From: an uncultured Planctomycetaceae bacterium
GTDB taxonomy: Bacteria; Planctomycetota; Planctomycetia; Pirellulales; UBA1268
Assembly (NCBI GenBank): GCA_903917235.1
Contig: CAIWZS010000033.1
Span: 1 to 41,958 of the forward strand
Length of the DNA: 41,958 nucleotides
Reading direction: 5' to 3'
Part shown: piece by piece, positions 1-26,262 of the stretch
How the letters are laid out: every line of letters starts with the position of its first letter
How positions within the stretch are numbered: position 1 is the stretch's first letter
Notes under the pieces: model-generated
The model's input: only the letters and a program-made list of their open reading frames with translations
Told to the model about the DNA's origin: nothing
The model's database searches: none
Position numbers and translations under genes: made by a program

Positions 1-1032
1 GATGAGGATGCTCGCCCCCGCGGCGAGCGGACCGTAGGTCACGTAGCTGTGGCCGGTGATCCAGCCACAGTCCGCCGTGCACCAGAAGAGGTCGTCGTCG
101 CGCAGGTCGAAGACCCACTCCGCCGTCGTCTTCGCCCAGAGGACGTAGCCGGCGGTCGTGTGCTGGATGCCCTTCGGCTTTCCGGTCGAGCCGCTCGTGT
201 AGAGGATGAAGAGCGGCGCCTCGGAGTCCATCGCCGCCGGAGGCGTGTCGGACGGCATGCCGTCCACGACGTCGTGCCACCAGTGGTCGCGACCGGCGGT
301 CATGGAGACGGGCTGGCCGGTCCGTTTGAGCACGATCACGTGCCGCACGGAGGGGGACTTCGTCAGGGCCTCGTCCACGTTGGCCTTGAGCGGCAGTTTC
401 GCGCCGCGGCGCCAGCCGCCGTCGGCGGTGATCACCGCCACGGCCTCGGCGTCGTTGTTGCGATCGGCGATGGCCTCGCTGGAGAACCCGCCGAAGATCA
501 CCGAATGCACCGCCCCGAGCCGTGCACACGCGAGCATCGCCACCACGAGTTCGGGCGTCATCGGCATGTAGATCGAGACCACGTCGCCGGGCTTCACACC
601 GAGCCGTGAGAGCCCGGCGGCGAGCCTGCAGACCTCCGCGTGCAACTCCCGATACGTGAGCGCGCGCCGTTCGCCGGCCGGCTCGCCGACCCAGACGAGG
701 GCGGTCTTCTCGCCCCGGCCCGCGGCGAGGTGGACGTCGAGGCAGGCGGCCGACGCATTCGTGAGGCCGCCGGCGAACCAGGCCGCATGCGGCGGGCGCC
801 AGTCGAGCACCCTGTCGTAGGGCCGCATCCAGGGCAGCGCGCGGGCCCGTTCGTCCCAGAACGACTCGGGTGAGGAGCGGGCGGCGTCGTAGAGCCGGCG
901 GTACTCCTCGAGCGACCCGATCCTGGCACGGCTGGAGAATGCCGTGGGAGGCGGGAAGACGCGATCCTCCTGCATCACGCTCGCGACGCGACCGGCGTCA
1001 CCCGTCCCGGCTGCCTTCTGTGGCACGTTCAT
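1..1032 (-). CDS. acs: Acetyl-CoA synthetase (acetate--CoA ligase), N-terminal 344 aa; continues past the left edge
   Basis: Not in the ORF track (no stop in window). Hand translation from ATG 1032 gives MNVPQKAAGTGDAGRVASVMQEDRVFPPP...WFAGGLTNASAACLDVHL...PLFILYTSGSTGKPKG...LFWCTADCGWITGHSYVTYGPLAAGASILI, which are canonical Acs motifs. GGGGGAG RBS upstream. Confidence 0.95.
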   Translation of the reverse strand, partial: MNVPQKAAGTGDAGRVASVMQEDRVFPPPTAFSSRARIGSLEEYRRLYDAARSSPESFWDERARALPWMRPYDRVLDWRPPHAAWFAGGLTNASAACLDVHLAAGRGEKTALVWVGEPAGERRALTYRELHAEVCRLAAGLSRLGVKPGDVVSIYMPMTPELVVAMLACARLGAVHSVIFGGFSSEAIADRNNDAEAVAVITADGGWRRGAKLPLKANVDEALTKSPSVRHVIVLKRTGQPVSMTAGRDHWWHDVVDGMPSDTPPAAMDSEAPLFILYTSGSTGKPKGIQHTTAGYVLWAKTTAEWVFDLRDDDLFWCTADCGWITGHSYVTYGPLAAGASILI

Positions 1033-13894: not shown

Positions 13895-14260
13895 GCGTCA
13901 TCTCGCGGTGGGTGGATGGGCCGGGATCGGGGCGTGGGGACCGGGTGACGGCGCGTCGCCCTGCATCAACACGTAGGTCGCCATCGGGCGACAGGCGCGA
14001 GACCCGCGCCGGTAGTTGCCGACCATGCCGGCGGATGTGAGCCGTACGATCGCGGCAACCCGCCTCACCCGTACGACCCGCACCCGCGGATACGGGGCAG
14101 CGAGATGTGGATCCTCCTTTGTTGGGGCACCCGCTCCGCGTGGCTCGGGGACGCGCAACGCGTCCCGGAGACGCTCGCTGCGGTATGCGTACAATCTCGA
14201 CCCGCACGATTCGGCCGCGTTCCCGCCCCTTGGCGACTCGTCTGACAGCCCCGGACGCCC

Positions 14261-17200
14261 GTGATGCCCAGCTCCGTCAGCCACGCGTCCCGCTGGTCCG
14301 TCGCCTCGGCGTCCCCGGCACCTCCCGCCTCGCTCGTCGGGCTGCTCGCGACCCGGCTTGCCGACGCGCCGGGCCGGCGCGCGATCGTCGATGCCCTTGC
14401 CGCCGCCGACGAGCACGCGGCGTGGAGCTGGGCCGAGCTCGTGGCGGCGGCGCTCGAGTGTCGGGACGGTCTCGTCGGCGCCGGTCTCGAATCGGGTGAC
14501 CGCATCGTCCACGTGGGTCCGCATGGCCCGGATTGGCTCGTGGTCGACCTCGCGTGCCTGCTGGGAGGGTTCGTGCATGCGGCCCTGCACATCGACGCGC
14601 CGCCACGGGAGCAGGAGAGGCTCACCGAGTGGCTGCGTCCGCGGGCGGTCATCACGAGTGGCGGTGCGAGCATCCTGGCGCGGCGCGGCCCCGCACTCGC
14701 CTCGTCGGGCGGGGAAAGCGTCTCCTCGGGCCTGCGCGGGGGCAGGTGGCGCGACCGGGCTGCGGACCTGCCCCGGCTCGCCGCGGAGGTCGAGGCACTC
14801 GCCACGGCGGTGGATCCCGATGCGTGCTGCACGATCCTGCTTTCGTCGGGAACGACGGGCCATCCTCACGGCGTGCTCCATTCGCAGCGGGCGCTCGCCG
14901 TCAATGCAGCCGCGGTGGCGGAGACGTTCCTCGACGACCCGCGTGACGTGCGGCTCGCCTGGCTGCCGATGAGTCACGCCCTGGCCCGCACCGGCGATCT
15001 CTACACGGCGCTGGTGCGCGGCGGCTGCCTGGCGATCGTGGGAGACCGTACGCGGCTCATCGACGCCTGTCGCGCGCAGGAACCGACGGTGATCCTCGGG
15101 GTGCCCGCGTTCTTCGAGCGACTGGAGGGGGCGTCGCGCGCGGGGCGGCTGCCCGATCTCGCCGCCGCGCTCGGGGGGCGCGTGCGGGTGTGCGTCTCCG
15201 GAGCGGCACCGCTGCGCCGACGCACGGCCGACTTCTTCGCGTCGCACGGGGTGCCGCTCGTGGAGGGATATGGACTGGCGGAGGCGGGACCGGTCGTCGC
15301 GGTGTCGAATCCGCGGATTCGGCGGCCGGGCACGGTCGGCCCCCCGCTGCCGGGAATCGAGGTGCAGCTCGATCAGCGGCCGGAGACCTCGGGGCAGTTG
15401 CTCGTGCGGACGCCGGCCCGCGCGATCGGCGTGCTGGCCGCGGACGCGACCGACGCCACGCCGCCCACCGCCGACTGGCTCGAGACCGGCGACGTGGCCG
15501 AGATCGACGAGCAGGGGCATCTGCGCATCGTCGGCCGCCTGCGGGACACGCTGGTGCTCGCCACCGGCGTGAAGGTGCCGCCGGCCGACGTGGAGCGGGT
15601 GCTCGCGGAGGACGAGGTGGTCGCCCAGGTGTGCGTGGTCGGTGACGGGCTGCCATGGCCCGTGGCGCTCGTCGTTCCCGAGCCGGCCGTCCTGCGGGCG
15701 ACCATGTCCCGATTGGGGGTGCGGGTGCTCAGTCGACGCGCCGCGCTCACCCACCCTCGCGTGCTCGCGTGGATGGGGCGGCGCCTCGCCTCCCGACAGG
15801 CCGGGCTGCCGAAGGCGTGGCAGGTGCGACGTGTCATCCTCGTCGGTCGGGCCTTCGATGCGGCGCACGGCGAGGCGACCGAGTCGCTCAAGCTCAAGCG
15901 GGCGGAGATCGTGCGACACTTTCGCAGGCAGGTGGAGGCTGCCGCGGCCGACGAATCGGCGCTCGGCGTCGGGGTGGTGCCGGGCGGATCGAACGCCGCC
16001 GCGGCGTCCGCCGGCGCCGTGAGCCTCCATGCTGGCGGCGTGGTGACGGCCCTGTGGCACGGCGGCGATGGGGGATTCACCGCGGCCGCGAACGCCGCAT
16101 CACGACCGCTGTCCGCCGGCGTGGTCGGGGTTCTCGAGCGGTCGTGCGCGACGCTCGCGCACCTGCGGGCCCACGGCAGGCTCTACGAGCCGCTCGAGGA
16201 GGCCGGCTCGGTGCCCCCTCTCGCCGACGCGCCGCCTCCACGGGTGGGACGGTTTTCGAGGGATGCCGAGGACGCGCTCGGCGAGGCCGGTTTGTGGGGG
16301 CTGTTCGTTCCGCCGGCGAATGGCGGGACCGGGGCCACGGTCGCGGAACTCGCCAGGGCGATCACGATGCTGGCGGCGGACTGCCCGACCGCCGCGGGGA
16401 TGCTCGCCGTCCACTCCGCGATCGGCGCGGTGTCGGCGTTGGTCGCGTTCGGCACGCCCGAGCAGCAGGCACGGCACCTGCCCGCACTCGCCGCGGGACG
16501 CCCACTTTCGATCTTCGGTGGCACCGAGCCCGATGCCGGCTGTGACCTCGGCGCCATCCGTGCGTCGCTCACGCGCGACGGCAACCGCCTGCGACTGACG
16601 GGCACGAAGATGTTCATCACCGGGGCGACGCACGGCCGTCTCGTGAAGGTTCTCGCGAATCTCGATGGCAGACCCGCGGTCGTGCTGGCTCGGCTGCCCG
16701 ATCGCGACACGCCGACCTTCAGGCTCCGCACCTACGAGATTCATCCACTGAAGCACGCGTACAATGCGGCGCTCGAGTTCGAGGGTTTCGAGATCGACCC
16801 CACCGATCTGCTCGCGGCGGGCGCCGGTCGCGAGGGGATGGCCATCGTCTGGCACGGACTCAACCGTGGTCGCGTGACGCTCGCGGCGCAGGCGGGGGGC
16901 ACGCTGCGGCTCATGCTCGCTCACGCGGTCGCGCATGCCGGGCGCCGTCATACCTGGGGCCGGGCGATCGCGTCGCGACAGCTCGTCCAGGGCCGGCTCG
17001 CCAGAATCGCCGCCGCGATCGAGGCGTGTGATGCGGTCGCCCAGTGGGCGGCCGCGGTGATCGACTCGGGCGCGGCAGGTGAGCTGGAGGCGATCGTGGC
17101 GAAGACCGTGGCGAGCGGCTGCGTGCGCGATGCGGCACTCGATGCGCTGGGGGTGCATGGCGGTCGCGCCTTCCTCGTGGGGCATCCGCTCGGCGACTCG

Positions 17201-17734
17201 CTGCATGACCACCTCGCCGTCGGCATCTACGAGGGTGAGAGCGACCTCCTCGGGCTCGCCCTGTTCAAGGGGCTCGCCCGCCGGCATCCGCTGGCCGACT
17301 CGGGAGCCCGCGGCTGGCGTCGGGCGGGGGCGTGGCTGGCGTGGCAGGTCGCTCGCTGGGCCGCCGCCCGTCCCGATCACGCCCCCCTGTTCGATCGCCG
17401 CCTGCGCGGGCACGCGCGGGAGGCGCATCGGGTGCTCCGCCGGGCCGCGCATGCGATCGACCGGGCGGTCCGGAGGCACGGCCGATCGCTTGCGGAGCGG
17501 CAACTCGAGGTCGGCAGCATGGCCGCCACCGTGCGGGAGAGCGTCGCCGTGATGGCGACCGCGTGGCACGCGGATGCGACCGGCTGTCCGCGCCGCGCCG
17601 ATGCGGCCGATGTGTGGTGCCGGCTCGCGCTCGCGAGGGCCGCGGGCAGGCTGCCCTCGGCGGCAGACCTCGAGGCGGTGGCGTCGCTCGGGGCCCGCGT
17701 TGCGATGGAGCCGGCGGAGCGGACCGAGGCTTGA
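14261..17734 (+). CDS. Fusion of long-chain acyl-CoA ligase (AMP-binding) and acyl-CoA dehydrogenase domains
   Basis: Single 1157-aa frame. N-half: LSSGTTGHPHG, LPMSHA, GYGLAEAGP, TGDVA, GRLRD, TESLKLKR. C-half: GGTEPDAGCD, LTGTKMFITG, LNRGR, RQLVQGRLA, GIYEGESDLL, ERQLEV. Confidence 0.88.
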   Translation: MMPSSVSHASRWSVASASPAPPASLVGLLATRLADAPGRRAIVDALAAADEHAAWSWAELVAAALECRDGLVGAGLESGDRIVHVGPHGPDWLVVDLACLLGGFVHAALHIDAPPREQERLTEWLRPRAVITSGGASILARRGPALASSGGESVSSGLRGGRWRDRAADLPRLAAEVEALATAVDPDACCTILLSSGTTGHPHGVLHSQRALAVNAAAVAETFLDDPRDVRLAWLPMSHALARTGDLYTALVRGGCLAIVGDRTRLIDACRAQEPTVILGVPAFFERLEGASRAGRLPDLAAALGGRVRVCVSGAAPLRRRTADFFASHGVPLVEGYGLAEAGPVVAVSNPRIRRPGTVGPPLPGIEVQLDQRPETSGQLLVRTPARAIGVLAADATDATPPTADWLETGDVAEIDEQGHLRIVGRLRDTLVLATGVKVPPADVERVLAEDEVVAQVCVVGDGLPWPVALVVPEPAVLRATMSRLGVRVLSRRAALTHPRVLAWMGRRLASRQAGLPKAWQVRRVILVGRAFDAAHGEATESLKLKRAEIVRHFRRQVEAAAADESALGVGVVPGGSNAAAASAGAVSLHAGGVVTALWHGGDGGFTAAANAASRPLSAGVVGVLERSCATLAHLRAHGRLYEPLEEAGSVPPLADAPPPRVGRFSRDAEDALGEAGLWGLFVPPANGGTGATVAELARAITMLAADCPTAAGMLAVHSAIGAVSALVAFGTPEQQARHLPALAAGRPLSIFGGTEPDAGCDLGAIRASLTRDGNRLRLTGTKMFITGATHGRLVKVLANLDGRPAVVLARLPDRDTPTFRLRTYEIHPLKHAYNAALEFEGFEIDPTDLLAAGAGREGMAIVWHGLNRGRVTLAAQAGGTLRLMLAHAVAHAGRRHTWGRAIASRQLVQGRLARIAAAIEACDAVAQWAAAVIDSGAAGELEAIVAKTVASGCVRDAALDALGVHGGRAFLVGHPLGDSLHDHLAVGIYEGESDLLGLALFKGLARRHPLADSGARGWRRAGAWLAWQVARWAAARPDHAPLFDRRLRGHAREAHRVLRRAAHAIDRAVRRHGRSLAERQLEVGSMAATVRESVAVMATAWHADATGCPRRADAADVWCRLALARAAGRLPSAADLEAVASLGARVAMEPAERTEA

Positions 17735-17792: not shown

Positions 17793-17882
17793 AAGGGGGC
17801 CGGCTGCGGTCTCCCCAGGGTGGCGTGGCGATCTCCGCCGGCCGCCGCCGTCACTCGAATCGCCAACGGACAGGAGGGCTCG

Positions 17883-18335
17883 ATGCCGTTTCTCATGGTC
17901 AATCTCGACGATCCCGCCGACTGCCGGCGGGCGATGCAGCAGCTGCGTGGGCGCGTCGTGGGCGCCCAGCGGATGACGGGGCCGTGCCGCGGAGGCCCGG
18001 GTGCGGGAGTGCCTCGGGCCGCGGGACGGTTGCCCCTCGGCCAACAGCTGCGTCGCATCCGGCACCGCGGCCTCTGGCCGCATCTTGTCCGCATCGCCCG
18101 GGCCTCGGCTGAGCCGCGTTCGCTCATGGAGTGGGACGAGGCCCTCGGGCTCCCGGCGAACAAGATGCGGTCGCTGAAGGCGATCATGGCCAAGCTCGAA
18201 AACCGGTTCGGGCTCCGGTTCCTGCAGCCGGCGACGGACGGGAGCGTCGATGCGGTCGGCAATCCACGGTATGAGATGGTGCCGCGCGTGCGTCGGGTCG
18301 TGCTCAGGCTCGCGGCCGAAGAGGCCGGCGGCTGA
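17883..18335 (+). CDS. Hypothetical 150-aa basic protein, possible winged-helix DNA-binding protein
   Basis: CAGGAGG RBS before ATG 17883; helical segment SLMEWDEALGLPANKMRSLKAIMAKLENRFG followed by a beta-like segment, suggestive of HTH plus wing (inference). Confidence 0.65.
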   Translation: MPFLMVNLDDPADCRRAMQQLRGRVVGAQRMTGPCRGGPGAGVPRAAGRLPLGQQLRRIRHRGLWPHLVRIARASAEPRSLMEWDEALGLPANKMRSLKAIMAKLENRFGLRFLQPATDGSVDAVGNPRYEMVPRVRRVVLRLAAEEAGG

Positions 18336-18900: not shown

Positions 18901-19962
18901 TCACCGGCTCGTGACGAGCGCCGGCCACCAGCTGCAGAGATACCAGCCGCGGGGCGCGGTCATCTCCGCAAGCAGTTCGAGCGGCTCCCGCGCGCCGGGA
19001 ATCGCCCCGCCGAGGACGTCGTCGAGCAGGCCGCGCGGCCGCGAGTAGCGCACCACCCGGGCCGTGTCGGCCGTGAGGCCCGCGAGTTCAACCGCGCGGG
19101 CGACGGCGTCCTCGACGAAGCCGATGCGGTCGACAAGGCCCGCCTCGAGAGCCTGACGCGAGGTGAAGACCTGACCCGTCGCGACGGCATCGACCGCCTC
19201 CGCGTCGAGCTTCGGCCGGCCGGCCCGGACGATCTCCTTGAACCGCGTGAACATGTCGGCGACCAGCGACTCGAGCACCTCGCGCTCGCGTTCCGCCAGC
19301 TCCGGGGTGCGGTCTTTCGTGGGGCTGAGCATCTCCTTGAGCGGGCCGCTGGCGACGGAATCATCGCGCACGTCGATGCGCTTGAGCAGCTGCGAGAGAT
19401 CGAACGACGGGATGATCACGCCGATCGAGCCGGTGAGCGTGGCGGGCTCGGCGTAGATGACGTCCTCGCGCCCGCCGTTGGCCATGGCGACGTAGTAGCC
19501 CCCGCTGGCGGCGATGCCTCCCATGCTGACCACGACCGGCAGGTCGCGGCGCGTCGCCAGCCCGGCGATGCGGTGGTGCAGCTCGTCGCTGCCGCTGACG
19601 GTGCCGCCGGGAGAGTCGATCCGGAGCACGATCGCCCGGACGCTCTCGTCGGCCTCGACGGTATCGAGCTGGGCCCGGGCGAACCCCTCGCCTCCCATGA
19701 TCGCGCCCGAGATCGTCACGATCGCGACCTTCGCGGGCGCGGCTTTGGAGAGCGAGTGATACGTCTCGACGACCCGTGGGTCGCGCTGGAAGTACTGCGA
19801 GAACGCCCCCGCACTGCCGATCGCCGCCAGCAGCGAGACGCCGGTGATCAACCACGCCAGCCGGGCGCCCCAGCGGCCCCAGCCGCCGGCCTGCTCGAGG
19901 ATGACGCGCGTCGGCGCCTGCCGATCGAGGCGTGTGAAATCGTCCTGCACCATAGATGCCAT
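18901..19962 (-). CDS. sppA: Signal peptide peptidase SppA (36K type)
   Basis: N-terminal TM; AIVLRIDSPGG, VVVSMGGIAASGGYYVA, TLTGSIGVI, VATGQVFTSRQALEAGLVDRIG; -10-like TAGAAT on the minus strand at 20012-20017. Confidence 0.93.
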   Translation of the reverse strand: MASMVQDDFTRLDRQAPTRVILEQAGGWGRWGARLAWLITGVSLLAAIGSAGAFSQYFQRDPRVVETYHSLSKAAPAKVAIVTISGAIMGGEGFARAQLDTVEADESVRAIVLRIDSPGGTVSGSDELHHRIAGLATRRDLPVVVSMGGIAASGGYYVAMANGGREDVIYAEPATLTGSIGVIIPSFDLSQLLKRIDVRDDSVASGPLKEMLSPTKDRTPELAEREREVLESLVADMFTRFKEIVRAGRPKLDAEAVDAVATGQVFTSRQALEAGLVDRIGFVEDAVARAVELAGLTADTARVVRYSRPRGLLDDVLGGAIPGAREPLELLAEMTAPRGWYLCSWWPALVTSR

Positions 19963-20119
19963 CCTCGCGTATGTCGATCGGCACGAACCACGGATCAATC
20001 CCTGCGACACGATTCTAGCGTCGCTGGACCAGCGATGGCGTGCGAGTCGCCGGTTGGCAGTCGCGGGCTGTCGCGGCTACGATCCCACTTTCCCCCGCGT
20101 CCTTTTGGAGCCGCATCTC

Positions 20120-20866
20120 GTGTTCGTCTGTGTCAGCACGGAGTGCCTGCCCGACATGCCGCTCGCCGCGGCGATGGAGCGGCTGGCCGAGCTGGAGTTC
20201 ACGGCCGTGGAGATCGACATCCACGAAGGCGGCGGCCACTTGGAACCGGCCCGCGTGGCCGCGGATCCTGAGGCGGCGATCGCCGCCTGCAGCGACCTGC
20301 AGCGGCTGCGACCGGTCGCGGTCTCCTTCGCCGCGCCGGAGACGCCCGCACTGTACGACCATTTCGCCGCGTGCTGCCGGCTCGCCAAGGCGCTCGGCGT
20401 CGTGACCGTCGTCGTCGAGTCATCGGAGCTCGGCACACCCTTCAACGGGGAGATCGAGCGTCTGCGGAAGCTCGTCGCCATCGCGTCACGGCTCGGCGCG
20501 GTCGTCGGCGTGAAGACCGCGGCCGACCGGATGACGCAGGACGCCGAGACGACCGCCTCCCTCTGCCGGAACGTCCCCGGCCTCGGGGTCACGCTCGATC
20601 CCAGTCACTTCATCCACGGCCACAAGAAGCCCGCGTCCTGGGAGCCGATCCTCAAGTACGTCTGCCACGTGCACCTGCGCGACACGAAGGTCGACGCGTT
20701 CCAGGTGCGGATCGGACAGGGGGGCGTGGAATACGGGAAACTCGTCCAGCAGCTCGGCCGCGTCGGCTATGCGCGAGGGCTCTGTGCGCACATGGCACCG
20801 CTCGAGGGTGTCGACCAGGTGGCCGAACTGCGCAAGATGCGGCTGCTGCTCGAGACGCTGCTCTGA
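20120..20866 (+). CDS. Xylose isomerase-like TIM barrel (sugar-phosphate isomerase/epimerase family)
   Basis: STECLPDMPLAAAMERLAELEFTAVEI, VTLDPSHF, HVHLRDT, RIGQGGVEY; GGAG RBS before GTG 20120; -10-like TACGAT at 20079-20084. Confidence 0.85.
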   Translation: MFVCVSTECLPDMPLAAAMERLAELEFTAVEIDIHEGGGHLEPARVAADPEAAIAACSDLQRLRPVAVSFAAPETPALYDHFAACCRLAKALGVVTVVVESSELGTPFNGEIERLRKLVAIASRLGAVVGVKTAADRMTQDAETTASLCRNVPGLGVTLDPSHFIHGHKKPASWEPILKYVCHVHLRDTKVDAFQVRIGQGGVEYGKLVQQLGRVGYARGLCAHMAPLEGVDQVAELRKMRLLLETLL

Positions 20867-21089
20867 CCCATGTCGGCAGCCGGGTCTGCGGACGCGGCTG
20901 GATGCCCCATGTGGGCCACGCCGGTGGAGCGACGGCTTCGGGGCGGCAACGGGATCTCTTCCGCCGCTCCAACGGCGGATCGGCTCGTCGCGTGGGCCGA
21001 GGCGGCCCAAAGCTCCTCGAGCGTTCGCCGACCCCTCGCCTCCGTCTCCAGGTTTGCCAAGTCGTCGCTCCAGCTAAACCAGATGCGCT

Positions 21090-23300
21090 CTAACGGAGGG
21101 TGCCGCCCGTCGACTCGGCACGGCTCGCCATCTCGGCATAGGCCCTCGACTGGCGATCGTCCCCTTCCTCGGCGTACATCGTCGCAAGATTGCCGTACGC
21201 CACGGCCAGCGCCCGCTCGTCGAGGGTCCGCGCCTCCACGGCGGCGACCATCAGGTCGACCCCGCGCTGGCTCAGTGCGAGCGCATCCTCGCGCCGGCCG
21301 ATCTGCCAGTAGGAGATCGCCATGCTGACGTACGACTCGCCAAAGCGTCCCGCATCGGAAGCTGATGCGGCGACGTCGGTCGCCTTCTCAGGCTCCCAGA
21401 GCGGCACCACGCGATCGAACCAGGTCACGGCGGTCGCGTGGTCGCCGCGCTGCAGGCTGTGCATGATGCCGATGCGGAACAGCAGTTCGCCCACGTCCCG
21501 GCGCTCGGTCACCGTGAGGTCGCGATGCTCCGCACCCCGCTCGAGATAGGCTGCCGTGAGCGTGGCGTTGTCGAGCATGTCGGTCGCATCCCCGCGTTTT
21601 TCGGCCGCCGTGAGGGCGTCGCGGAGGCCGAGTCCGACCTCCCAATCGATCTGGCGACGTCGCCAGGGGTCGGTCATCGCCTCGCCCATCCGCTCGCGGA
21701 GTTCGAGCAGCCGCTTCACCCAGGGCAGCGGTTCACCGGCCTCGGTCGAACCGGCGGACGAGGCGAGCACGCCGCGGCAAAGCTGCAGCTCGAGGATGAG
21801 TCTCTCGGTGTCGGATCCCTTGAAGTCCGTCACGATCGTCTCGCTGCGCGCGATCCACTTCGGGATGACCCGGCTCTTCTGCTGCCAGGTGCCCTCGGCG
21901 ATCGCCCGGGCCGTGCCGATGTGGGCCCCGAGAAGCACCTCGGTGGCGGCCGCCTGCATCGCGGGCGACTTCTTCGCCGCGAGCGGCGCGGCGCGGCGAA
22001 TCGCGTCGGCGAAATGCTCCACCGCCGCCTGATGATCGGGCTCGGGCCCGGCGAGCGCGGCACGGCCGAGCAGCCTTTTCACCTGCGCCATGACGAGCGG
22101 TGACGGCCCCTCGCTCGTGGCGACGTGCTCGAGCACCACGCGGGCCTCGTCGGGGCGGTCGAGCGCGAGGAGGACACTCGCGTGCTTGATCCGCGTCCAG
22201 ATGTCCTGCGGGTCGAGCCGCACCGCGGTCTCCGCGAGCCGCAGCGCCTCGTTCCACCTGCCCTGCTCGCTGCTCATCGCGAGCAGGAGACGGTGGGCGC
22301 GGACGTGTTCGGGATCGAGCTGGATCGCATAGTTGAGGTCGGCGACCGCGTTGGCGGCCGACGACTCCATCTCGCCTTCGGCCCGGAGGACGAACGCCTC
22401 GGGATCGAGCGGTTCGATCATGATGCCGTCGGCCGCGCGCGTGCCCGGCTCCACGCTCAGGATGACACCGCGCTCGGGATACACCTCGCCGATCGATCGC
22501 CCCTCCTCGTCGAGGATCGACACGGTGCGGAGCTCGGAGATTTCCAGCTGCTTCGCCAGTTCGGCGATCGGCACCGCCTCGGCGAGCTTGATGCGGATCG
22601 CCGTCACGACGTCCTGCTCGATGGCCACCTCGACACGGTCGAACGGCTCGATCGACCAGGCGACCGCCTGTTCACCCTCTTCGGTCGTGAATGGCTCGCC
22701 TGCGCCCCACGTCGCCTCGATCTCGGCGCGGGTCGTCTTGCCGGGATGCACGCCGCGAAAGCTGGCCGGATCGATCGACAGCGCGGGCATCTCGTCTGGT
22801 GTGGCCGCGACCGGGGCGGTCACCGTCACCGGGGTCTCGGGGGCGTCGCGCCCCTCCGCGACGGTTTCGGTCGTGCGTTCGGCACCCTCGTCGGTCCGCG
22901 TCTCCGTGGCGGGGGCTTCGCGCGGGCCACCGAAGAGCGCCGTGGGCGTGGGCAGCGCCGCCATCCGCTCCGTGAGCCACCGTCGCACGGGGCCTTCACC
23001 GGACGAGTCGGTGTCGACCGGGGCCCGCTCGGACGTGCTCGACGTCGTCGCCTGCTCCTCCTGCTCGACTCCGGAGACGGTCACGGCTCCTTCCGGTCGC
23101 GCGGCCTTCGTCTCGGGTTGCTCGGCTGCATCGGGCCGTCCGGCACCGAACGACTCGATCCACTCCGGAAGCCGGAGCAGCGGACGGGGCGTCGATCGCG
23201 AGGGTGGTTCCGCGGCGAAGAGCGACGCCGGCAGGGCCCAGAGTGCGGCCAGGAACAGGCTCGAGGATACGAACGAACACGGCTTCCGCAGCGTGGCCAC
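21090..23300 (-). CDS. Exported TPR-repeat protein of unknown function
   Basis: AAGGAGG RBS before GTG 23300; signal peptide; low-complexity E/T/P/A linker; alpha/beta middle domain; TPR-like helices (AIQLDPEHVRAHRLL, AVRLDPQDIWTRIKHA, VAYGNLATMYAEEG). Confidence 0.8.
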   Translation of the reverse strand: MATLRKPCSFVSSSLFLAALWALPASLFAAEPPSRSTPRPLLRLPEWIESFGAGRPDAAEQPETKAARPEGAVTVSGVEQEEQATTSSTSERAPVDTDSSGEGPVRRWLTERMAALPTPTALFGGPREAPATETRTDEGAERTTETVAEGRDAPETPVTVTAPVAATPDEMPALSIDPASFRGVHPGKTTRAEIEATWGAGEPFTTEEGEQAVAWSIEPFDRVEVAIEQDVVTAIRIKLAEAVPIAELAKQLEISELRTVSILDEEGRSIGEVYPERGVILSVEPGTRAADGIMIEPLDPEAFVLRAEGEMESSAANAVADLNYAIQLDPEHVRAHRLLLAMSSEQGRWNEALRLAETAVRLDPQDIWTRIKHASVLLALDRPDEARVVLEHVATSEGPSPLVMAQVKRLLGRAALAGPEPDHQAAVEHFADAIRRAAPLAAKKSPAMQAAATEVLLGAHIGTARAIAEGTWQQKSRVIPKWIARSETIVTDFKGSDTERLILELQLCRGVLASSAGSTEAGEPLPWVKRLLELRERMGEAMTDPWRRRQIDWEVGLGLRDALTAAEKRGDATDMLDNATLTAAYLERGAEHRDLTVTERRDVGELLFRIGIMHSLQRGDHATAVTWFDRVVPLWEPEKATDVAASASDAGRFGESYVSMAISYWQIGRREDALALSQRGVDLMVAAVEARTLDERALAVAYGNLATMYAEEGDDRQSRAYAEMASRAESTGGTLR

Positions 23301-23587
23301 GAGAGTTCCTCCTTGAACGGCTGATCGAACGGCGATGTCGGGGCGGGCGGGGGACATGAATGCGGGGGGGACGGTAGGCGTGGCCGGCGACGCCGTCCAG
23401 ACCAGAAAGGCCGCTCTGCTCGAGACGGCATGCCGTCCCGGAGCCGATGGCCGGCGTGGTCGAGGAAGCCGGGGAAAGGTGGGGGAGACCGCCCGACACC
23501 CCGCCAGCGTGCCGGGCGTGCCCTGCCGTGCCGGTCACGACCACCTACACTGCACCGACGGATCCCGGGGCCGAGTCTGTGCAATCG

Positions 23588-25075
23588 ATGATGGACGACC
23601 GTGTGATGCCCAGGGCCGTCGTCCTCGGGGCAGGCATGGCCGGGCTCGCGGCGGCAGAGTCGCTCGTGGAGTCCCACTGGAAGGTCACCGTCATCGATGC
23701 GTCGGGGCGGCCCGGCGGCGTGCTGGGAACCCGCCGGGAGGACGGCTGGCTGGTCGAACGGTCGGCGGACACGTTCCTCGCGGCCCGGAGCGAGGTCATC
23801 GACATGGTCGCGCGGATCGGCCTGTCCGACGCGCTCGTGGGCGTGGCGCCCGAGGTGCGGCGCGCGCTCGTGTGGCACGGCGGCCGGGGCATACCGGCCC
23901 CGGACGGCTTCCGTCTCCTGGCGCCCGGCAGCGTCGGGGGCATCCTGCGCACGTCGCTCTTGTCTCCGGCGGGGCGGCTGCGGGTGCTCGCCGAGCGGTT
24001 CGTCCCGGCGCGATCTCGGCCGCGCGACACGGCCGATGACGACGAATCGCTCGAATCATTCGCCGTGCGTCGCCTTGGCCGCGAGGCGTTCGAGAACCTC
24101 GTGCAGCCGCTCGCGGCTGGAATCTGGACGGCGGACCCGGCACGCCTCGGGATGGCGGCCGCCTGCCCCGAGTTCTTCGCCATGGAGCGTGACGCCGGGA
24201 GCCTGTGGGCCGGAGAGCGCGCGCGACTCGCGGCCCGCGCGACCGCCGACACAGGTGATTCCTCGCGTCGCGGCGACCATGGCACGGCGGGTGCGAGGTA
24301 TGGGCAGTTCCTCACGCTCGTGGACGGCATGGAGTCGCTTCCCGTCGGGCTGGCAGCGCGGCTGCGGGCCAACGGCGTGACCTTCGTCACGGCGCGGGCG
24401 ACCGCGCTGGCGAGGCGCACGACCCACTGGCGGGTGGAGGGATCGGGTGATGATGGTCCCGTCATCCACGAGGCCGACGCCGTCGTCGTCGCGCTCCCCG
24501 CAGCGGCGGCGGCGACGCTGGTCCGTGGGGAGGATCCCGTCCTGGCCGCTGAACTCGCCGCGATCGAGTACGCGGGCTCGGCGATCGTTTCGCTGGGCTT
24601 CTCTCGCGGCGATGTGGCGCATCCGCTCGACGCAGCCGGCATGGTGGTGCCGCGGCGCGAGGGCCGGCGGGCCCTGGCGCTGAGTTTCTCGAGTTCGAAG
24701 TTTCCTGGGCGGGCTCCGGACGCGGCGGTTCTCGTGCGCGTGTTTCTCGGAGGGGCCCTCGATCCCGAGGTCGTTCATCTCGAGGAGGCACCGCTCGTGG
24801 ACCTGGCTCGGCGGGAGGTCGAGGTGCTGATCGGGGCGCGGGGGCAGCCCCGGCTCACGCACGTCGAACGCTGGCACGGAGCGATGCCCCAGTATCACGT
24901 CGGGCACGTGGCCCGCGTCGGGCGTGTCTCGGCCGCGGTCGGCCGTCATCCCGGTCTGGCCCTGGCGGGCGCCGCCTACGAAGGGGTCGGCATTCCCCAG
25001 GTCATCGCGTCGGGCCGCAGGGCGGCGGAGCGGGTCGTCTCCTCCGCGGCCCTCCCACCGGCCGGCGTGCGGTAG
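23588..25075 (+). CDS. hemG: Protoporphyrinogen/coproporphyrinogen oxidase (HemG/HemY, FAD-dependent)
   Basis: VVLGAGMAGLAAA, RPGGVL, VERSADTF, ESFAVRRLGRE, GIWTADP, GMVVP, SSKFPGRAP, RWHGAMPQYHVGH, LAGAAYEGVGIP; -10-like TACACT at 23546. Confidence 0.93.
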   Translation: MMDDRVMPRAVVLGAGMAGLAAAESLVESHWKVTVIDASGRPGGVLGTRREDGWLVERSADTFLAARSEVIDMVARIGLSDALVGVAPEVRRALVWHGGRGIPAPDGFRLLAPGSVGGILRTSLLSPAGRLRVLAERFVPARSRPRDTADDDESLESFAVRRLGREAFENLVQPLAAGIWTADPARLGMAAACPEFFAMERDAGSLWAGERARLAARATADTGDSSRRGDHGTAGARYGQFLTLVDGMESLPVGLAARLRANGVTFVTARATALARRTTHWRVEGSGDDGPVIHEADAVVVALPAAAAATLVRGEDPVLAAELAAIEYAGSAIVSLGFSRGDVAHPLDAAGMVVPRREGRRALALSFSSSKFPGRAPDAAVLVRVFLGGALDPEVVHLEEAPLVDLARREVEVLIGARGQPRLTHVERWHGAMPQYHVGHVARVGRVSAAVGRHPGLALAGAAYEGVGIPQVIASGRRAAERVVSSAALPPAGVR

Positions 25076-25086
25076 CCCGGGCCGGA

Positions 25087-25320
25087 CTACTTCTTCTTCG
25101 CCGCCGGCTTGGCGGCGGCCGCCCCCTCGGCCTCTTCCTTCTTGGGCTTCTTCTTTTTCATCGACATCTTCTGCACGCGTACCTTCGGCAGGCCGAGTGG
25201 GCTGCGGCCGTCACCCCAGAGATCCTGCTCCTTGAGTCTCGCGATGCGCTCGGCGCGCGTGAGCACTCCGCGAACGTTGGAGGCACCCTTTCGCACGCGC
25301 AGGCTCTTGTCCATCGTCAT
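25087..25320 (-). CDS. Small basic protein, signature protein of the PVC superphylum (TIGR04137-like), nucleic-acid binding
   Basis: MTMDKSL...RGVLTRAERIARL...W..GRSPLGLPKVR with a Lys-rich tail; GGAGA RBS. Confidence 0.9.
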   Translation of the reverse strand: MTMDKSLRVRKGASNVRGVLTRAERIARLKEQDLWGDGRSPLGLPKVRVQKMSMKKKKPKKEEAEGAAAAKPAAKKK

Positions 25321-25356
25321 GGCCGTCTCTCCGGTCGGAAGTTCATGTCAGCGGAA

Positions 25357-25385
25357 AGCGTAGGGAGGCCGTGGGTTCCGATCAA
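25357..25385 (-). promoter_or_regulatory. Sigma70-type promoter for the PVC signature protein gene
   Basis: Minus strand TTGATC (25385-25380) - 17 nt - TACGCT (25362-25357), inside the 78-nt spacer. Confidence 0.6.
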
Positions 25386-25398
25386 GGTCCGGGCCGAT

Positions 25399-26262
25399 TC
25401 AGCACGTCACCTTCGCGATTCGGCGGAGGAAGTCCTCCATGGCGGGTGGGCGGTCGCCCGGGTCGGCCGCGAGGCAGGCCATGATCGCGTCGGCGAGCGC
25501 GGCGGGGGCGTCCTGCCAGTGTGCCCGGATGTCCTTGGGCGTGGTGTCGTGCGCGAGCGCCGCCCGGCCGCTCGATCCCCGGGGCCACGGCAGCTCGCAG
25601 GTGCCGATCTCGTATGCCGTCACGCCGAACGAGAAGACGTCGAGTCGCCTGTCGGCCTGCCGTCGCCGCACCACCTCGGGCGCCATGTAGTTCGGGCTGC
25701 CGATGCGGTTCCCCGGCTGCATGAACACCGGCTTGTCGGGCACGGCCAGTCCGAAGTCGAAAAGCACGAGCGTGCCATCGGGTCGAAGGATGAAGTTGCG
25801 GGGGCAGATGTCCCGATGGACGTAGCCGGCCGCATGGACGGTGGAGACGGCCGTCGCCGCCTGGCGCACGAGGTCGAGACGCTGCGCTGGCGAGAGCGGC
25901 GTGCGTGCCATGAGCAGGCCGTGCAGCAGCGTGCCGTCGATGAATTCCTGCAGCACGAAGGGGGCACCGTCGCTGGACACGCCCCACTCGAGGGTGCGCA
26001 CGACGTTGGGTCCGCTGATCGCGAGCCCGATCTCCCCCTCGCCGGGCTTACCCAATCCTCGATAGCGGGCCTCGATCGGCTCGCTCTTGAGCCGGTCGAT
26101 CAGCTTGAGTCCGCGCAGCTCGCCGGACACGTTGTCTCGAACCTTGTAGAAGGTCGACATCGTGCCGACGCTGCTCTCACGCAGTCGCTCGAAGCGTCTG
26201 TCGAGATCGACACGCGTCGGCCGTGCCCTCCGTCCTGCAAACAGCCGCGAGAAGAAGCCCAT
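25399..26262 (-). CDS. Stand-alone Hanks-type (eukaryotic-like) protein kinase
   Basis: LRGLKLID (beta3 Lys), GEGE (helix C), PNVV, HRDICPRN, LFDFGLA, IGSPNYMAPE, DVFSFGVTAYE, DPGDRP; no TM or sensor domain. Confidence 0.93.
   Translation of the reverse strand: MGFFSRLFAGRRARPTRVDLDRRFERLRESSVGTMSTFYKVRDNVSGELRGLKLIDRLKSEPIEARYRGLGKPGEGEIGLAISGPNVVRTLEWGVSSDGAPFVLQEFIDGTLLHGLLMARTPLSPAQRLDLVRQAATAVSTVHAAGYVHRDICPRNFILRPDGTLVLFDFGLAVPDKPVFMQPGNRIGSPNYMAPEVVRRRQADRRLDVFSFGVTAYEIGTCELPWPRGSSGRAALAHDTTPKDIRAHWQDAPAALADAIMACLAADPGDRPPAMEDFLRRIAKVTC

Follow-up and report, generated by a model that had tools for sequence, protein, structure and literature searches.

What is the function of a gene that encodes an acyl-CoA ligase and an acyl-CoA dehydrogenase (ACAD) in a single chain? 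In the usual scheme of beta-oxidation the ligase acts first, followed by an ACAD working with the electron transfer flavoprotein (ETF) and ETF:quinone oxidoreductase (ETF-QO), and then by FadB and FadA. Contig CAIWZS010000033.1 of an uncultured Planctomycetaceae bacterium carries, at positions 14261..17734 (+ strand), a gene that joins the ligase and the ACAD; it is one part of the 41,958-nt stretch of DNA analyzed here, referred to as the window. The evidence makes it likely that the product is a bifunctional FadD-FadE enzyme placed at the entry to beta-oxidation. Both of its domains belong to well-known families and the fad operon type concerned is ordinary; what is unusual is the single-chain architecture.

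The gene is one open frame of 1157 codons plus a stop codon. Since the copy of the same protein in the protein collection (P0002) has 1156 aa, the true start is probably the ATG at 14264. The codon-position GC pattern is typical of a real gene (0.87 at third positions, in a genome of 71% GC), and the composition is even along its entire length. The N-terminal adenylate-forming domain of the ligase (residues 32-386; 14354..15418, + strand, as are all features of the gene given below) matched the Pfam family PF00501 (AMP-binding) with 193 bits, against a cut-off of 29.9. The ligase C-terminal subdomain follows at about residues 425-563 (15533..15949), as supported by PF23562 and the NCBIfam FadD11 model, with the Pfam domain AMP-binding_C_3 at residues 429-479. 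A variable Ala/Pro/Gly-rich linker (residues 561-598; 15941..16054), indel-rich and poorly conserved, then leads to a helical, conserved N-terminal extension of the ACAD half (residues 599-662; 16055..16246), in which W599, G605 and R636 are invariant. The ACAD core (residues 663-1007; 16247..17281) is composed of Acyl-CoA_dh_N (PF02771, residues 661-746, 56.3 bits), Acyl-CoA_dh_M (PF02770, residues 752-840, 33.3 bits, which is exactly the cut-off) and Acyl-CoA_dh_1 (PF00441, residues 858-997, 79.7 bits). It is followed by a helical C-terminal extension (residues 1008-1157; 17282..17731).

A first-pass annotation of this DNA had described one uninterrupted ligase-ACAD frame of 1157 aa, and the open frame, the Pfam domains and the relatives of the gene all bear this out. 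When genomes of 36 species of the same GTDB genus were searched, all of them proved to carry the fused full-length frame (58-94% identity). An assembly artefact, or read-through of two neighbouring genes, had to be considered at this point: the genome is a fragmented metagenome-assembled genome (MAG) of 553 contigs, and related orders do carry the two genes side by side. As the same frame recurs in all 36 of these independently assembled species, as well as in many metagenome contigs, the fusion is not a mis-assembly. Moreover, the junction holds the conserved structured segment of residues 599-662, and composition does not change across the gene. We therefore regard an artefact as having a negligible probability.

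Another genus of the family has the fusion as well, interrupted there by contig ends alone. The same five domains recurred in more than 120 protein clusters from a word-indexed search (1120-1210 aa; 59-88% identity), whose named sources are Planctomycetota MAGs, and nothing above about 45% identity was found outside the family in a 401-genome sample of the phylum. An exhaustive HMMER search against 1.84 billion representatives (clusters at 50% identity) brought up only three full-length fused ones, the remaining top matches being ligase-only, ACAD-only or fragments. The fusion is real and fixed, and phylogenetically narrow. A "1310-aa open frame" in genome G370, an apparent second fusion, proved false, with stop codons parting the two genes. 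In genome G405 an additional ligase-only copy (C240:22035-23459; a 550-aa frame, 66% identical to residues 15-493) was found beside the full fusion, and a secondary fission, a paralogue or contamination from another strain may account for it. No ligase-ACAD single chain was described in the literature searched, so the architecture does not appear there as one already characterized, and the automatic JGI names of the fused proteins just list both COGs.

The two halves were then compared with their relatives. The N-terminal half matched ANL ligases in fold, with template modelling (TM) scores of up to 0.78. Its best NCBIfam match was the FadD11 equivalog (NF038343; residues 300-563), with 169.6 bits, which is far below the cut-off of 950, and the half is therefore a FadD11 relative rather than a member. 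By its sequence it is classified as an ACSL/FadD11-like acyl-CoA ligase of the ANL superfamily. The closest solved relatives of the other half were ACADs (E about 1e-40). Human VLCAD (3b96) aligned in sequence to residues 672-1126 and the Thermus protein 2z1q to residues 673-1133, and an AlphaFold2 monomer model of the fusion (mean predicted local distance difference test, pLDDT, 83.3; predicted TM score, pTM, 0.79) superposed on VLCAD 2uxw with a TM score of 0.73 over 554 columns. This half is accordingly assigned to the VLCAD-like ACADs with a C-terminal extension, the type of extension that the first-pass annotation had recognized.

In the AlphaFold model pLDDT fell below 50 within the linker, at residues 577-585, and reached 82-93 in the helices of residues 593-637; the pTM value hints that the arrangement of the halves is defined. 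The C-terminal extension includes a Trp/Arg-rich helix (residues 1018-1034), with W1025, L1026 and W1028 nearly invariant. VLCAD contacts the membrane via the segment directly after its core, and the fused enzyme, whose helix takes up the same position, may likewise sit at the membrane. By analogy with VLCAD, it would form a homodimer.

The motifs quoted in the first-pass annotation are all present: the A3 P-loop SSGTTGHPHG (residues 195-204; 14843..14872), the A5 motif YGLAE (337-341; 15269..15283), the A10 region TESLKLKR (540-547; 15878-15901), the FAD-contact motif TEPDAGCD of the ACAD core (755-762; 16523-16546) and IYEG (989-992), with YEG and its catalytic Glu991 at 17228-17236. The fusion does not match the canonical A3 pattern [ST][ST]G[ST][ST]GxPKG, and homologue alignments place His203 at the position of the usual Lys and Ala340 at the Thr/Ser of A5. 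Conservation was scored in 120 homologues of the fusion. Residue 203 is His in 98, Arg in 16, Lys in five and Gln in one, and is thus basic in 119/120, while YGLAE, with Ala for the Thr of YGxTE, is found in 120/120. T409 and D411 of the A7 motif TGD (409-411) are invariant and G410 is retained in 119/120; invariant too are G425 and R426 of the hinge GR..D (residues 425-429, in the ligase C-terminal subdomain) and K544, the A10 Lys. In the ACAD half, Cys761 of TEPxxGCD is present in 120/120, with T755, E756, G760 and D762 also invariant. The retention of the catalytic Glu was confirmed, as YEGE (990-993), in which Glu991 occupies the position of MCAD Glu376, is found in every homologue.

Omega, estimated against the closest congener by the Nei-Gojobori method, was 0.20 in the ligase, 0.15 in both the ACAD core and the C-extension, and as low as 0.05 in residues 599-662; constraint is weaker in the linker (0.24-0.9, versus 0.15-0.35 elsewhere). 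These values point to purifying selection on both halves. The first-pass annotation had allowed for an inactive ligase half; decay of this half finds no sign in a residue 203 that is basic almost throughout, an invariant A10 Lys and an omega of about 0.2. H203, YGLAE and GCD thus appear as fixed signatures of the fused clade, and the replacement of Ser by Cys761 in the FAD motif as a conservative change. Because the separate orthologue in genome G190 is canonical (TSGTTGHPKG, YGLSE, GSD), the three changes are assigned to the stem that leads to the fused clade. The idea of a fatty acyl-AMP ligase, of which YGLAE and a Lys-less P-loop might be typical, is unsupported: a 41-residue motif query against the PDB returned ordinary CoA ligases and noise only, and nothing on these motifs was found in the literature searched.

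The genomic context of the two activities was established from the order. The halves are separate genes in 22/24 other families sampled there, with a ligase of ∼560 aa (33-38% identity) and an ACAD of ∼650 aa (38-42%). Twenty loci, nine of them order or class loci, were compared and their neighbours clustered. The ACAD gene adjoins fadB and fadA in 7/9 order/class loci, and the ligase gene is there too in six of these seven, which reveals a co-linear fadB-fadA-ligase-ACAD operon in the order (Pfam: fadB, ECH and 3HCDH; fadA, thiolase). Within the genus, fadB, fadA and the fusion are directly adjacent in 7/10 loci, ∼4 kb apart in two, and unlinked in one. The statement of the first-pass annotation that no other beta-oxidation gene is nearby is correct for the window; as a property of the gene it fails, since it reflects a local rearrangement. 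In this genome an intact fadB and fadA are found together with a DUF6580 gene and rpsA on another contig (C39). Downstream of the fusion, a block at window positions 18901-26262 (S49 peptidase, xylose-isomerase-like TIM barrel, TPR protein, amine oxidase and kinase genes) is syntenic across the genus, while the upstream side, with a sigma-54 activator and an Exo_endo_phos gene, is distinct in this genome. This pattern marks the breakpoint that parted the fusion from fadB-fadA.

This context bears on the suggestion that the protein is a specialized lipid activation/desaturation enzyme, one whose activation of one given fatty acid and insertion of a 2,3-double bond would serve biosynthesis, for example of an unusual membrane lipid or secondary metabolite, rather than catabolism. 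A shift of function could lie behind the motif changes confined to the fused clade and behind the length of its stem, and both the lack of an adjacent beta-oxidation gene in the window and the failure to find ETF, the catabolic electron sink, would suit such a role. However, the fusion follows fadB-fadA in 9/10 congener loci, being the third gene of a fadB-fadA-fusion operon, and its separate orthologues are the last two genes of the same fad operon in the order; no carrier protein, polyketide synthase/nonribosomal peptide synthetase or lipid-synthesis gene is conserved beside the fusion among the clustered neighbours of the loci compared. Furthermore, the fusion is the only canonical ACAD: it is the sole PF00441 match in its own genome (93% complete) and in 25 of the 32 genus genomes that are at least 90% complete, six others having in addition a weak, distant second match and one (G480) a weak, distant match only. 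A biosynthetic role would therefore leave FadB and FadA without a dehydrogenase to feed them. Lipid tailoring is disfavoured on these grounds and we consider it improbable.

If the fusion is the entry enzyme of beta-oxidation, where do its electrons go? ETF (PF01012) was detected in 0/61 genus genomes and ETF_alpha (PF00766) in 0/5 of the most complete ones, and neither ETF-QO (PF05187) nor an EtfD-like FeS membrane oxidoreductase was found in the genome carrying the window. The classical scheme of beta-oxidation is therefore incomplete here. That no ETF turned up in the genus is the most unusual aspect of the case, and one that had escaped the first-pass annotation. A haem-copper oxidase gene, COX1, is present, which indicates that aerobic respiration is available to the organism. 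Across the order, ETF occurs in 23/81 good genomes, and among 21 genomes scored for both the separate ACAD orthologue and ETF, 16 keep the orthologue and have no ETF. In two relatives, G444 (L029:4325-8824) and G458 (C6:254426-257623), the genes etfB and etfA lie directly beside the ACAD orthologue, and in G444 a membrane FeS/CCG oxidoreductase of the EtfD type comes next; members of the orthogroup can therefore use ETF. The orthogroup would thus rely on ETF in a small number of lineages and do without it in the majority, the fused clade included. Nothing relevant on planctomycete beta-oxidation without ETF was found in the literature searched. For E. coli FadE, too, the manner of re-oxidation is to our knowledge not settled.

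The electrons of the FAD would then bypass ETF and go to O2, to a membrane quinone or to a protein partner. The first of these options, a variant of the favoured function, would answer the question of the acceptor: the ACAD half would behave as an acyl-CoA oxidase, with O2 taking the electrons and H2O2 being formed in a peroxisome-like first step. Such a reaction fits an aerobic, COX1-bearing organism in which no ETF, ETF-QO or EtfD-like gene was found, and acyl-CoA oxidases and VLCAD-type enzymes, the latter represented by the fold match 2uxw, are alike in being dimers with an additional C-terminal helical domain. The top sequence and fold matches are nevertheless dehydrogenases, the orthologue beside etfBA in two relatives argues for a group that can use ETF, and O2 reactivity is not predictable from sequence; we consider an oxidase rather unlikely. 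Proposed here tentatively, as something short of probable, is that the fused enzyme, like the separate orthologues in most of the order, runs beta-oxidation without ETF, the ligase-tied VLCAD-type ACAD, anchored at the membrane through its C-terminal extension, handing its electrons straight to the respiratory quinone or to an undescribed partner. If true, this direct transfer would be an uncharacterized electron route out of an ACAD.

Several points weigh against a role at the entry to beta-oxidation. The P-loop Lys and A5 Thr/Ser positions normally touch the nucleotide, and the replacement of both may mean a lower or altered ligase activity. An ACAD in a genome in which ETF, ETF-QO and an EtfD-like oxidoreductase were not detected has no textbook electron route. 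In this genome the fusion is unlinked from fadB-fadA and stands divergent to the sigma-54 activator gene. Finally, every genome involved is a fragmented MAG.

With these points taken into account, the reading of the protein as a FadD-FadE enzyme suggests the following course of events, in which the activities of both halves are deduced from their sequences. The ACSL/FadD11-like half would convert free fatty acid, ATP and CoA to acyl-CoA, which the VLCAD-type flavoprotein half would oxidize to trans-2-enoyl-CoA. The separately encoded FadB-like hydratase/dehydrogenase and FadA thiolase would process this product and finish the cycle, and the fused enzyme would also take up the shortened acyl-CoA that leaves the thiolase in every further cycle. 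Since the only canonical ACAD must accept this free shortened acyl-CoA, obligate tunnelling from the ligase site is unlikely. The first-pass annotation had put forward substrate channelling; the union of the first two activities on which it was based is genuine, and strict channelling does not hold as the whole account. More plausibly, the fusion would mainly provide a fixed 1:1 expression and co-localization of activation and first oxidation.

The origin of the fused gene was examined with a maximum likelihood tree of ACAD halves (quick search, midpoint root). All fused ACAD halves grouped in one clade (Shimodaira-Hasegawa-like approximate likelihood ratio test 100), whose stem measures 1.01 substitutions per site; this agrees with one fusion event, after which change accelerated. 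At the N-terminus of the separate ACADs is a conserved extension, of which the fused form keeps only the part from Trp599 onward; W599 aligns with a conserved Trp in the extension of the separate orthologues. About 50 residues of this extension are replaced in the fusion by the Ala/Pro-rich low-complexity linker (561-598). The separate orthologues also show a strongly conserved N-terminal motif, SFAETALKLGGKSAEEARRTGA.D.ADDQ (L022:11142-11520, with equivalents in L025, L028, L029, L030 and L041), which is lost in the fused form. A single event in the ancestor of one small-genome planctomycete family would thus have joined two neighbouring genes of the fadB-fadA-ligase-ACAD operon, and a burst of sequence change would have fixed the unusual motifs. 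Genomes of the genus measure 3-4.5 Mb, versus 5-9 Mb in the rest of the order, and the small size fits a fusion during genome streamlining.

Other features of the loci were also recorded. A polytopic membrane protein of the DUF6580 family (179-226 aa; 'putative transport protein' in the Atlas) is encoded divergently upstream of fadB in 3/9 order/class loci and 8/10 genus loci, examples being L044:11338-12018 (on contig C39 of the same genome as the window), L022:4810-5451 and L034:14816-15469; it may be an importer of fatty acids, or else a partner of the pathway in the membrane. Just downstream of the fusion, at window positions 17820-18335 (+), lies a 171-aa open reading frame without a Pfam family, preceded by a near-consensus promoter (TTGACG-N17-TATCCT); congeners do not share it at this position, where one of them encodes an EF-hand protein. 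At positions 4-726 (-) there is another AMP-binding (acyl-CoA ligase-like) gene, which is cut by the contig end and is positionally unrelated to the fusion. Because of the divergent sigma-54 activator, a sigma-54 promoter (TGGCAC-N5-TTGC, ≤2 mismatches) was looked for before the fusion; there was no site in 13895-14260, and the window-wide total at this threshold was below chance. A consensus scan gave no sigma-70 promoter upstream of the fusion and no terminator, and a paper on the sigma-54 regulon contains nothing on the fusion gene.

The lineage compresses beta-oxidation to three polypeptides, with a single ACAD for all chain lengths and no ETF system found. It offers a natural test case for what is gained from a ligase-ACAD fusion, be it stoichiometry, membrane co-localization or channelling, and for ACAD re-oxidation without ETF; the ETF missing across the genus is the more interesting point, the fusion itself being chemically ordinary. 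The fusion also serves as a 'Rosetta stone' link, confirming that in many planctomycetes the neighbouring genes for the ligase and the long ACAD act in concert, and the compact, self-contained activation-oxidation module may be of use in pathway engineering.

Compared with known systems, the ACAD half resembles human VLCAD and ACAD9 and Thermus 2z1q in its ACAD core with a ∼150-residue extension and in the catalytic Glu within YEG. Identity to the fusion is only about 21%, and the fusion differs in having GCD for GSD and a ligase at its N-terminus; moreover, VLCAD uses ETF, whereas no ETF gene was found on the side of the fusion. With the FadD11-type ligase of M. tuberculosis and ACSL-type ligases (COG1022) the fusion has in common the T.S.K.KR C-terminal tail, TGD and GR..D, and it differs from them in its non-canonical A3 and A5 motifs. 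Beta-oxidation in M. tuberculosis uses an ETF/EtfD route (PMC8593149). The relative G444, with its ACAD orthologue, etfB, etfA and EtfD-type oxidoreductase, is similar, in contrast to the 61 genus genomes without an ETF match and to the genome of the window without an EtfD-like protein.

The closest counterparts are the two-gene planctomycete ligase and ACAD, which are direct orthologues of the fusion (37-38% identity). Separate FadD and FadE are encoded in bacterial fad operons such as the fadXDEBA locus of S. aureus (PMC12369327). Separate FadD and FadE proteins of this kind share with the fusion the same two chemistries and the same partners, a FadB-like multifunctional enzyme and a thiolase. 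In the fused enzyme the two are united in one polypeptide, in which His, Ala and Cys stand in for the Lys of the P-loop, the Thr/Ser of A5 and the Ser of the FAD motif, respectively.

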